DNA of 26,272 nt. Origin: Candidatus Kaiserbacteria bacterium RIFCSPLOWO2_02_FULL_54_13. Its GTDB lineage: Bacteria > Patescibacteriota > Minisyncoccia > Phycocordibacterales > Phycocordibacteraceae. Location of the stretch: positions 702-26,973 of the forward strand of contig MFMI01000008.1 in the NCBI GenBank assembly GCA_001783465.1. The letters are read 5' to 3'. Below, piece by piece: positions 15,132-16,966 of the stretch. Numbering within the stretch: the stretch's first letter is position 1; every line of letters begins with the position of its first letter. A model generated the notes under the pieces. It had not been told where the DNA came from. It was given only the letters and a program-made list of their open reading frames with translations, and did no database searches. The translations under genes were made by a program, and so were the position numbers.

Positions 15132-15261
15132 ATTAGCTTCAGATTATCGGCCAGAAATGATAGGGTAGAGAAGTCGGGCCCCTATCTTCGCGGACTCGAT
15201 ACATACCCTTCGTTCGGCGAAAGCGAATAATTGCGGACACTCATTCGCTTTACCTCACTCA

Positions 15262-15337
15262 GGGCCTGTAGCTCAATTGGTAGAGCGCCTCATTTGCAAT
15301 GAGGAGGTAACCGGTTCGAAACCGGTCAGGTCCACCA
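15262..15337 (+). tRNA. tRNA-Ala(TGC)
   Basis: Acceptor GGGCCTG/CAGGTCC with G3:U70, anticodon arm CCTCA-TTTGCAA-TGAGG, T arm ACCGG-TTCGAAA-CCGGT, encoded ACCA. Confidence 0.96.
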
Positions 15338-15525
15338 TGAAACCACAGCATTTTGATATTCTTGGTTCGTTAGCATTCGCGTACGTGACTGTGTTCGCAG
15401 TTTATTCGTTAACGCACGGAGGAGACGTACCGACATGGAGCATCATCCTCCTCGCTATAATCGGGATTGCTGGACTTACGGTAGATGTACTGATTGTCTA
15501 TCGTTATTTTATTCGGAAGCAATAA
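15337..15525 (+). CDS. Small two-helix membrane protein (62 aa)
   Basis: MKPQHFDILGSLAFAYVTVFAVYSL...WSIILLAIIGIAGLTVDVLIVYRYFIRKQ; two hydrophobic segments, basic C-terminus; ATG shares the terminal A of the tRNA CCA. Confidence 0.65.
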   Translation: MKPQHFDILGSLAFAYVTVFAVYSLTHGGDVPTWSIILLAIIGIAGLTVDVLIVYRYFIRKQ

Positions 15526-15529
15526 ATGT

Positions 15530-15603
15530 TGGTCGGGCCGCCGGGAATTGAACCCGGTCTACACGCACCCGAAGCGTGCGTACTACCGGCATACTCCGGC
15601 CCG
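15530..15603 (-). tRNA. tRNA-Pro(CGG)
   Basis: CGGGCCG/CGGCCCG acceptor, CACGC-TTCGGGT-GCGTG anticodon arm, CCGGG-TTCAATT-CCCGG T arm, ACCA end. Confidence 0.95.
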
Positions 15604-15628
15604 TTTACCCCGAACTCTGTCGAGGGGG

Positions 15629-15702
15629 TGCGCTCTATAGGATTCGAACCTATGACCTTCCGCGTGTGAGGCGGACGCTCTAACCAACTGAGCTAAGAGC
15701 GC
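15629..15702 (-). tRNA. tRNA-Val(CAC)
   Basis: GCGCTCT/AGAGCGC acceptor, TCCGC-CTCACAC-GCGGA anticodon arm, ATAGG-TTCGAAT-CCTAT T arm; CCA not fully encoded. Confidence 0.95.
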
Positions 15703-15721
15703 GCACAAGCACAATATCACA

Positions 15722-15883
15722 TCGGGCTATCGGGAATCGAACCCGATCTATTCAGCACCATTTTCACATGTCGGGATACCCGGAATCGAACCGGGACTAC
15801 AGCCACCCCATGGCCGCGTACTACCACTATACGATATCCCGTTCAAAATGGTGCTGGACGTACTACCGGTATACTATAGCCCG
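15722..15883 (-). other. Interrupted outer tRNA-Pro scaffold enclosing tRNA-Pro(GGG)
   Basis: 5' half 15883-15859 (CGGGCTA-TA-GTAT-ACCGGTA-GTAC-G) and 3' half 15750-15722 (TAGA-TCGGG-TTCGATT-CCCGA-TAGCCCG-A) pair with each other; no anticodon loop, replaced by a 14-nt inverted repeat and a whole tRNA. Confidence 0.85.
15771..15841 (-). tRNA. tRNA-Pro(GGG), nested
   Basis: CGGGATA/TATCCCG acceptor, CGGCC-ATGGGGT-GGCTG anticodon arm, CCCGG-TTCGATT-CCGGG T arm, A73; CCA not encoded. Confidence 0.93.
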
Positions 15884-15936
15884 TTCGCCTTTTGGAGTGT
15901 AGCAAACGTCTCTCGTTTCTGGTATTTTTATTCCAC

Positions 15937-16252
15937 GGGCCTATAGCCCCTCACACGAAACAACCTCGCTATGTTCTACGTTTATGTACTTCGCAGTCGT
16001 AAAGATGAAAAGTTATATATTGGATACACAGATGACCTACGCCGCCGATTATCCGAACATAACAAAGGGTTAAGTCGTGCCACAAAGTCGCGAATCCCGC
16101 TAGATTTGGTATATTACGAGGCGTACGCATCGCAGGCTGATGCTAAAGTGCGCGAGAAGCGACTCAAGTCTTCGGCCGGTGCGAACACAGCACTCAAACG
16201 TCGATTGCGGGACAGCCTGCGATAAGGATGTTTCGTGTGAAGGGGCCTATAG
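15937..16252 (+). mobile_element. Putative GIY-YIG mini-element with inverted repeats and duplicated tRNA 5' end
   Basis: GGGCCTATAG direct repeat at 15937-15946 and 16243-16252; imperfect 26/28-nt inverted repeat 15941-15966 / 16225-16252 bracketing the ORF. Confidence 0.55.
15971..16225 (+). CDS. Small stand-alone GIY-YIG nuclease (UPF0213/YhbQ-like), 84 aa
   Basis: 'FYVYVL.S......YIGYT.DL.RR..EHN.G', 'LVYYEAY', 'A..RE..LK'. Confidence 0.93.
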   Translation: MFYVYVLRSRKDEKLYIGYTDDLRRRLSEHNKGLSRATKSRIPLDLVYYEAYASQADAKVREKRLKSSAGANTALKRRLRDSLR

Positions 16253-16316
16253 TAAAGTGGTATTACGCGTCATTCGCATTGACGAGGCGGGAGTCCGATT
16301 CTCCCTAGGTCCACCA
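16243..16316 (+). tRNA. tRNA-Ala(CGC)
   Basis: GGGCCTA/TAGGTCC with G3:U70, D stem GTAA/TTAC, CGTCA-TTCGCAT-TGACG, T arm GGGAG-TCCGATT-CTCCC, ACCA. Confidence 0.92.
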
Positions 16317-16440
16317 CTTCGCTCGTAGAGTACTACGAGCTTCGCGGTGCAAGCACCATGTCAGAAAATTACGTAGACAAACCGTGTTCACTACTTGGCG
16401 AAGTGGTGCCCCGCGAAGCTATACTAGCGGAGTGGGGCCT

Positions 16441-16680
16441 ATGTATTACGTTTATATTTTAAAAAGTGGGAAAGATGGTAGCCGATACATCGGGGTTACT
16501 GAAGATTTGAAACGTAGATTATCAGAGCATAACAATGGTGGCTCTCGCTACTCCAGCAATAAACGACCGTATAAAATAATCTGGTATTCAGCATTTGTCG
16601 TTAAAGCCAGAGCACATGAATTTGAGAAATATCTTAAGTCGAGCTCGGGGTATGCTTTTTCTAAGAAACATTTGTTATAG
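16441..16680 (+). CDS. Small stand-alone GIY-YIG nuclease, second paralog, 79 aa
   Basis: 'YYVYILKS......YIGVT.DL.RR..EHN.G', 'A..FEKYLKSSSG'; ATG 16441 preferred over the track start. Confidence 0.93.
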   Translation: MYYVYILKSGKDGSRYIGVTEDLKRRLSEHNNGGSRYSSNKRPYKIIWYSAFVVKARAHEFEKYLKSSSGYAFSKKHLL

Positions 16681-16690
16681 TGCGACACAC

Positions 16691-16801
16691 GGGCCTGTAG
16701 TTCAGCGGTAAGCAGAGCTTTCTGCTTCGGCGCTCGGCAGAAGTAAATACGCAGACGCATTCACTTCGCCTTACTTCTTGCAGTAGAACGCATCCATAGC
16801 A
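16691..16801 (+). pseudogene. tRNA-Ala-like 5' fragment with a 75-nt insertion in the D-loop
   Basis: GGGCCTG-TA-GTTC-AGCGGT [insert 16710-16784] A-GAAC-G-CATCC-ATAGCAT; D stem GTTC/GAAC restored on removing the insert; no 3' half found. Confidence 0.7.
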
Positions 16802-16823
16802 TCATGTTATTCTTCCTCACGCA

Positions 16824-16896
16824 GGGCCCGTAGCTCACTTGGTAGAGCGCCGCCATGGCATGGCGGAGGCAAGGGGATCGTAACCCCTCGGGTCCA
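16824..16896 (+). tRNA. tRNA-Ala(GGC)
   Basis: GGGCCCG/CGGGTCC with G3:U70, CCGCC-ATGGCAT-GGCGG, T arm AGGGG-ATCGTAA-CCCCT (non-canonical loop); CCA not encoded. Confidence 0.9.
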
Positions 16897-16966
16897 CAAT
16901 CGCTTGACAGCGCATGCTATACTCTGGGACGGTCGAGATTATCAGCCATTATCTCTTACGACCACC

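Follow-up and report, generated by a model that had tools for sequence, protein, structure and literature searches.

What are the roughly 90 nucleotides that directly precede a tRNA-Ala(TGC) gene in this genome: an RNA leader that evolved with the gene, or a separate and mobile piece of DNA? The window analysed here, by which we mean the whole 26,272-nt stretch at positions 702-26973 of contig C8, comes from a 682-kb genome assembled in 32 contigs (the source genome, G000). Judged by the ATP synthase alpha subunit, its nearest relatives are MAGs that bear the labels Parcubacteria, Paceibacterota or Patescibacteria. It contains an island of six tRNA genes (Ala-TGC, Pro-CGG, Val-CAC, Pro-GGG, Ala-CGC and Ala-GGC; 15262-16897, ARAGORN and Rfam) with two small GIY-YIG ORFs between the genes. 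A first-pass annotation of this DNA described a hairpin-bearing module before tRNA-Ala(TGC), a parallel module inserted in a D loop and a shorter end before tRNA-Ala(GGC), and read them as a family that is either mobile or acts as tRNA leaders. The quoted strings are indeed found at these places, the G of the first ...CAG (15262) is G1 of tRNA-Ala(TGC), and the short end abuts tRNA-Ala(GGC), whose G1 is nucleotide 16824. The resemblance between the first two modules had been overstated, as 14 of the last 22 nt are identical without gaps (the same as 14 of the 19 nt quoted) rather than 17.

Compared directly, the two intergenic stretches reach a local alignment score of 20, against 15.3 +/- 2.3 in 2000 dinucleotide shuffles (p about 0.05). 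The copy before tRNA-Ala(TGC), folded alone, is likewise unremarkable (z-scores of -1.3 to -1.5 against shuffles), which is explained by the decay of its first hairpin. Both results fit an explanation without any element, namely chance similarity or shared ancestry of paralogous tRNA-Ala leaders. We give that explanation hardly any credence, because it is refuted by genus-wide copies before differing tRNAs: hundreds of copies precede unrelated tRNAs with arms matched to the respective tRNA, and both empty sites and covariation are seen. Homology of the two window stretches can be recognised with confidence only at the level of the family, whose covariance model detects them with 89.7 and 22.5 bits, respectively.

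The relatives of the element were found in a BLAST search of 150 genomes of this Parcubacteria genus with positions 15132-15264 of the window. About 25 of these genomes matched the ~88 nt that immediately precede tRNA-Ala(TGC), often multiply, and the matches directly precede Ala, Trp, Lys and Arg tRNAs. Twenty-two copies were aligned (alignments A1/A2), and a covariance model (R1) built from 22 copies in other genomes was used for a wide search. With R1, the element was detected in 95 of the 150 genomes (more than 300 matches, up to 14 copies per genome). In other genera of the order it was present in 9 of 150 genomes, with lower scores and with the same layout and tRNA adjacency. The source genome has four R1 matches: window positions 15175-15271 (89.7 bits), a copy before tRNA-Ile(GAT) on contig C16, a copy on contig C5 without a tRNA and the D-loop insert (22.5 bits).

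For statistics of positions and ends we retrieved 105 distinct copies. As many as 83 are adjacent to a tRNA gene in the same orientation, and 82 of the 83 end exactly at the +1 position assigned by ARAGORN. The downstream tRNAs represent ten amino-acid classes (Lys, Arg, Ala, Trp, Met, Ile, Leu, Pro, Thr and Asp). Thus, the search for further copies near tRNAs of relatives, proposed together with the module family, bears the family out, and all three places named in the window are related, the short end (16813-16824) not being significant alone (7.3 bits, E 2). The description of the family as ending in CAG has to be revised. Most often CTTC stands immediately before tRNA base 1 (45 of 105 copies read TCACTTC, and 90 of 105 have C at position -1), and the two tRNA-Ala copies, with CA|G, represent a minority form. 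In Rfam searches only tRNAs reached the gathering score; the element itself remained unmatched at E-values up to 10, and no family was matched at the non-tRNA sites. Literature searches found no description of this element in CPR bacteria.

In the source genome, upstream DNA of most tRNAs is short, A/T-rich and unrelated to the element. CCTCAC was considered as a general tRNA leader motif and rejected: in this genome it occurs only before Ala-TGC, Ala-GGC and Ile-GAT and, in reduced form, at Arg-CCT. Upstream of the last gene (contig C14, 14248) the leader end CGTTCGG is joined directly to CCTCGCTC, and this leader looks like an element copy that is missing its long hairpin.

The 22-copy alignment reveals a common layout. 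Each copy begins with a duplicate of nucleotides 1-8/9 of the tRNA, followed by a small hairpin (b), an arm complementary to the duplicated nucleotides, the motif TCGTTCGG, a long hairpin (e) that starts with GG-N and ends with N'-CC, the motif CCTCACTTC and then tRNA +1. The copy before tRNA-Ala(TGC) is full-length (15175-15261), though decayed, and its parts are as follows.

15176-15184, + strand: decayed left copy (A5') of tRNA-Ala nucleotides 1-8/9, GGGCCCCTA versus GGGCCTGTA in the tRNA (alignments A1/A2)
15183-15201, + strand: small hairpin b, TATC and GATA separated by an 11-nt loop; pairs in 19-22 of 22 sequences
15200-15208, + strand: complement arm (A3'), TACATACCC, with 7 of 9 positions complementary to the 5' strand of the tRNA; covaries with the tRNA start across tRNA types
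15210-15217, + strand: conserved unpaired motif TCGTTCGG, the last GG of which opens hairpin e; (near-)invariant columns in A1/A2
15216-15254, + strand: long hairpin e, with a core stem of 15220-15228 paired to 15243-15251 and GCGGAC in the loop; from covariation and the MFE fold
15253-15261, + strand: conserved 3' motif CCTCACTCA that terminates the element; A2 consensus CCTCACTTC
15262-15337, + strand: tRNA-Ala(TGC) (ARAGORN; Rfam tRNA, 70.9 bits), the first 8-9 nt of which are the right, functional repeat copy

The stem of hairpin b is swapped in other copies for ATATCAG/CTGATAT or CATATG/CATATG, and the core stem of hairpin e is lengthened by GG(N)/(N')CC. The ttcg/cgaa hairpin highlighted by the first-pass annotation is not the conserved one, the covarying stem being that of 15220-15228 with 15243-15251. 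The additional upstream structure that it reported is divided by the element boundary: ccctatc (left copy and hairpin b) and taccc (complement arm) belong to the element, and their proposed partners gataggg and gggta lie in unconserved flank. The main feature, a per-copy duplicate of tRNA nucleotides 1-8 together with the complement of those 8 nt, had been missed. Conserved terminal inverted repeats, the mark of a DDE-type MITE, were not visible on inspection of A2 (left ATC TTCG.. or ATG TAGG.. versus right ..CCTCACTTC). A sigma-70 promoter scan showed no promoter-like site near the element; the string TTGAAG...CTCACT inside it, considered as a -35/-10 pair, was rejected as not credible.

The covariation that had been suggested as a check is strong. 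In hairpin e 95% of the cells are paired, 8 of the 11 pairs change on both sides and none of 500 shuffles reaches the observed score. Averaged over 100 copies, 7.96 of the 9 positions of the left copy agree with the tRNA start. The complement arm pairs with the left copy at 76.7% and with the tRNA's own 5' strand at 75.3%, compared with only 32-50% in slid controls, and no shuffle attains the covariation observed for these pairings.

The other family members of the window lie at the far end of the tRNA island.

16691-16709, + strand: 5' portion of a defunct tRNA-Ala(GGC)-type gene that includes the acceptor strand and D arm and runs through the T of GGT|AG (direct repeat family D5)
16710-16784, + strand: diverged 75-nt family member, lodged in the D loop of the relic behind the T of GGT|AG (R1 match)
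16809-16823, + strand: probable 3' stump of an element, ATTCTT plus CCTCACGCA, abutting tRNA-Ala(GGC) (direct repeat D1; counterparts elsewhere)
16824-16897, + strand: tRNA-Ala(GGC) (ARAGORN, Rfam)

The D-loop insert scores 22.5 bits with R1 over 16705-16786 (E 3.5e-4 for a search of the window and 0.009 for one of the whole genome) and is missing four bases of the TCGTTCGG motif. The relic resumes at 16785 with AGAACGCATCCATAGCAT, like the Ala-GGC genes of two relatives (G050 and G045). A D-loop-type copy is also present in another genome (G141, locus L035, 33.8 bits) with an identical ...TTGCAGT end. This subfamily keeps its right end, TTGCAGT, unchanged in two different tRNAs, which means that some insertions are off-target and proceed without re-matching, so that re-matching is not universal. 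The stump before the intact tRNA-Ala(GGC) is probably a 3' remnant of the element, judging from its alignment with counterparts: 16813-16824 aligns with the 3' strand of hairpin e plus CCTCAC before Ala-GGC in four genomes (G023, G091, G050 and G045), where full elements precede this gene. The 86-nt direct repeat D1 spans 9 nt of the leader plus tRNA-Ala(GGC).

The island has further peculiarities. At 16785-16806 the relic corresponds to the 5' half of a GTTCAGCGGTAGAAC-type Ala-GGC gene, a type seen in G050 and G045; the D arm of the adjacent intact Ala-GGC is different, and the intact gene therefore looks like a replacement allele. A tRNA-Pro-like gene on the - strand (15722-15885) is split at the anticodon region by an entire tRNA-Pro(GGG) gene, which is flanked by a perfect 12-bp inverted repeat (15753-15764 and 15845-15856). 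At 15937-16252 an ORF for an 84-residue GIY-YIG protein lies between a copy of tRNA-Ala(CGC) nucleotides 1-10 and the intact tRNA. This cassette is closed by a 20-nt inverted repeat, the right arm of which enters the tRNA start, and thus has the same logic of tRNA-start copy plus complement as the small element, with different ends. Displaced 8-9-nt tRNA starts account for several signals of partial tRNAs in the window.

Filled and empty versions of the same site are found, as are dispersed near-identical copies at different sites. The tRNA-Ala(TGC) gene of a relative (G013), 100% identical to that of the window, is located 14 nt after ddl without the element. Nine copies, in nine genomes, reside within a 370-470-nt insertion at LSU model position ~2620 of the 23S rRNA gene. 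From an exon-pairing guide and conserved blocks we infer that this insertion is a group I-like intron; the Rfam group I model gave no match to it. In many relatives this intron is present with an empty, plain loop, GGGAAGC-GAAA-GCACCCGTAGAGACTG. Where the loop is filled, the element stands directly before a native GC(A/G)CCCGT|AG that resembles a tRNA-Lys start. The same peripheral loop is a hot spot for inserts in general (loci L156-L185), including the element, other hairpins and, in one genome (G100, L184), a LAGLIDADG-type ORF. The 23S gene is absent from the assembly of the source genome, where this rRNA context was also sought.

The copy on contig C5 of the source genome lies on the stop codon of an ORF of 503 aa. 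Empty versions of this site in two relatives (G122 and G166), anchored on the downstream gene only as the upstream gene is too diverged for a DNA match, read ...CTGT|AG. The relatives end with ...TTGCTGTAG and ...CTTCTGTAG and continue with the same downstream gene. At four further loci (L047, L048, L051 and L052, in G010, G132, G005 and G152) the element is followed by GCGCCTGTAG, an exact tRNA-Lys start. The DNA after it is unrelated and lies upstream of an RNase R-like gene, and no tRNA or Rfam family was found there. Tandem arrangements also occur (L100, L276 and L135), with a single target copy common to elements of clearly different variants.

These sites define the insertion point. In most copies the target is nucleotides 1-8 of a tRNA, that is, the acceptor 5' strand plus U8. 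The insertion point follows the T of the 8-nt target, and the target is itself followed by AG (or CG, GG). Taken together, the intron and stop-codon cases and the tRNAs with C or G at base 9 indicate that insertion occurs after the T of (G/A)T|AG, that the repeat is 8 nt long and that the element itself starts with A. An 8-nt direct repeat surrounds the insert, and as to its origin the stop-codon case and the D-loop subfamily point in opposite ways, one to a duplicated target and the other to a right copy borne by the element.

Based on these data, we consider it likely that the element is a target-copying hairpin insertion element at tRNA 5' ends, and with similar assurance we take 15175-15261 to be an old copy of such a protein-less, structure-bearing insertion element of ~90 nt. 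Of the two possibilities raised by the first-pass annotation, mobile DNA is the better supported, whereas the name of tRNA leader applies by position only. If the sequence were an evolved pre-tRNA 5' leader working as RNA, the first hairpin would mimic the acceptor stem and the arm would pair either with the mimic or with the real 5' strand. Such an RNA might switch between folds or processing routes, or, as a tRNA-like minihelix, attract RNase P, RNase Z or the CCA-adding enzyme and free a small RNA made of hairpin e. The junction lying exactly at +1 in 82 of 83 copies is in line with such a leader, and so are the strong covariation and the two strictly conserved unpaired motifs. However, the element is missing at most tRNAs and in 55 of the 150 genomes of the genus, it occurs in an intron loop, at a stop codon and in intergenic DNA, tandem copies exist and no Rfam family matches it.

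The strand tests bear on this leader more directly. An RNA maintained by selection should show pairing preserved on the transcribed strand, but no excess of G.U over A.C is found there. Folding the top strand of hairpin e gives 83 G.U pairs and folding the bottom strand 87; in 71 of 101 copies it is the bottom strand that folds more stably, the opposite of what is expected for an RNA under selection. There is thus no sign of RNA-level selection.

The minihelix version makes a further prediction for alanine tRNAs. Whereas the 3' strand of the tRNA has T opposite G3 (the G3.U70 pair, ..GGTCC), the arm has C in the majority of the nine Ala copies, most plainly L058 and L056, and ends with ..CCC, the plain complement of GGG. 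The arm was therefore not copied from the tRNA 3' end, and we rejected the view of the first hairpin as an internally deleted tRNA copy or minihelix. Two observations remain in favor of the leader. Among copies with unequal left and right repeats, the arm is nearer to the right, functional copy in 28 and to the left decoy in 15, and stems are intact at apparently the same loci across genomes. The excess of 28 over 15 fits a pairing of arm and right copy that matters to the element and does not discriminate between DNA and RNA. Overall, we regard an RNA leader, in any of its variants, as unlikely.

Re-matching of the arms to differing targets can be seen from copies with closely related cores. 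There are 71 pairs with cores at least 88% identical, 39 of which are located at targets differing in at least 2 of the 8 nt; some with identical loop b as well occur at targets differing in 4-5 of the 8 nt. Visual inspection of examples such as L063 and L079 showed perfect 11-bp arms, each matched to its own target. Renewal of the arms therefore outpaces divergence of the core by far.

A guide-like complement that reads the exact insertion point could also belong to an RNA-level mobile element or a small ribozyme. The arm would then serve as an internal guide like the group I IGS or group II EBS, with reverse splicing, target-primed copying or self-cutting at the leader/tRNA junction. The conserved unpaired core nucleotides and the copies within a group I-like intron are also consistent with this possibility. 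Yet the element consists of just two hairpins and about 15 conserved unpaired bases, it matches no known ribozyme family at E-values up to 10 and its stems are without RNA-strand bias, so that we consider a ribozyme or RNA-mobile origin very unlikely.

For the target-copying DNA element, we propose the following course of events. Insertion into tRNA nucleotides 1-8 leaves the gene intact and turns all that is upstream of +1 into a 5' leader, which would then be trimmed by RNase P. The source genome encodes both rnpA and a full-length rnpB (99.6 bits). The match to its RNase P RNA gene (contig C14, 5929-6400) extends over 472 nt compared with 367 model positions and scores 99.6 bits against a gathering cut-off of 100, and the gene may carry an insertion. 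The element itself would act as DNA, through folded single strands, with the complement arm as a guide-like part that selects look-alike 8-mers; tRNA-Lys starts are mimicked at both the intron site and the intergenic GCGCCTGTAG site. All three target-derived arms would quickly be re-matched to each new target. Insertion itself might copy the target as a template, or quasi-palindromes might be corrected afterwards by template switching, which is established as a source of mutations (PMC7202029).

The leading candidate for the enzyme would be a Y1/HUH transposase of the IS200/REP type acting in trans. Y1_Tnp genes are present in 80 of the 150 genomes: 67 have both the gene and the element, 28 only the element, 13 only Y1 and 42 neither, which corresponds to an odds ratio of 7.7, uncorrected for relatedness of the genomes. 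Against this candidate, neither of the two Y1 genes of the source genome is flanked by element copies, one genome with 11 copies (G059) has no Y1 match, and IS200/IS605 elements make no target duplication, whereas the insert here is flanked by an 8-nt repeat. A family of ~227-residue proteins (starting ...GEFYHVYNRG...; contig C18, 15637-15861, and contig C14, 6671-6904) matches only the C-terminal two thirds of Y1_Tnp and has up to 11 copies in some genomes of the genus; one of the genes lies ~270 nt from the RNase P RNA gene (C14, 5929-6400).

Some observations do not sit easily with mobility as the whole story. Copies at the same rRNA-intron site in different genomes keep perfect but different hairpin e stems along with intact motifs, and perfect but different stems are also kept at apparently the same tRNA-Lys(CTT) loci. 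Perfect, varied stems and strictly conserved unpaired motifs could reflect selection in place, i.e. a function.

A more specific version of the mechanism may be put forward tentatively, although we ourselves find it doubtful. The element might be a minimal programmable insertion system, in which an 8-nt arm picks the target in single-stranded DNA and is rewritten from each target, letting the element walk along tRNA 5' ends and their look-alikes with a host or trans-acting HUH enzyme. If true, nature would have a guide that retargets itself and needs neither RNA nor Cas-like proteins, of relevance to research on HUH transposases and programmable insertion. Direct and inverted copies of the target are in any case unusual among bacterial repeats and point to a guide-like choice of site and per-site renewal of the arms. 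If our reading is right, selfish DNA inhabits essential genes of very small genomes cheaply, the tRNA start being restored and the leader discarded by RNase P. Annotators of CPR genomes can easily take copies of the element for pieces of tRNAs, for introns or for regulatory leaders. What the present analysis adds are the empty sites in the intron and at the stop codon, the strand symmetry, the comparisons of arm with copy and of core with target, the G3.U70 test and the co-occurrence with Y1.

Several known systems share parts of this behavior. Tyrosine-integrase elements target tRNA genes and rebuild them following attP/attB logic. As in such integrative elements, partial duplication of the tRNA gene keeps an intact gene, and a displaced partial copy is found at the other end. 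Unlike them, the element uses the 5' end rather than the 3' half, duplicates 8 nt, has a total length of ~90 nt and carries no integrase inside; the Phage_integrase family has a single match in each of five genomes checked. Correia/NEMIS, RUP and the Rickettsia palindromic elements are MITE-like small repeats of bacteria. The element resembles these in being ~90 nt long, non-coding, multi-copy and scattered over tolerated sites, and differs from them in its lack of conserved terminal inverted repeats in A2, its inverted copy of its own target and its preference for tRNA nucleotides 1-8. With 5' leaders removed by RNase P it shares the position between a probable transcription start and tRNA +1, in a genome with genes for both the RNA and the protein of RNase P, but it is unlike the ordinary leaders, since the upstream DNA of other tRNAs in the source genome is unrelated to it.

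Hairpin repeats acting as single-stranded DNA are known also from the Ssn GIY-YIG single-strand nucleases (PMC11893778). In this respect the similarity extends to the window, as GIY-YIG genes are present in the same tRNA island (15971-16225 and about 16441-16680), and the source genome has seven GIY-YIG matches in total. In contrast to the Ssn context, the GIY-YIG cassette found here bears ends different from those of the element.

The closest parallels are with REP/BIME sequences and the ends of IS200/IS605. Both IS200/IS605 and REPs with their TnpA-REP (RAYT) depend on Y1 HUH enzymes and single-strand transposition (PMC8266576, PMC3201880, PMC5934647). IS200/IS605 insertion occurs without target duplication, which fits the element only if the right copy belongs to the element. 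In a comparison made from sequence alone, the element is distinguished by the 8-nt direct repeat that flanks the insert and by its target, the 5' end of a tRNA gene. The likenesses are nevertheless several. REPs consist of GTAG plus a hairpin (PMC8266576) and their recognition centres on this GTAG, while the element inserts within (G/A)T|AG. As with REP and IS200, Y1_Tnp genes are common in the genus and co-occur with the element. Finally, the geometry is similar: the known small hairpin repeats have a short guide beside the hairpin that pairs with the cleavage or target site, and the element has a hairpin beside a covarying complement of its flank that may act likewise. In Y1/HUH systems this hairpin-adjacent guide is re-programmable (PMC3201880, PMC5934647), and where IS200/IS605 use a tetranucleotide (PMC3201880), the element has an 8-nt plain Watson-Crick complement.
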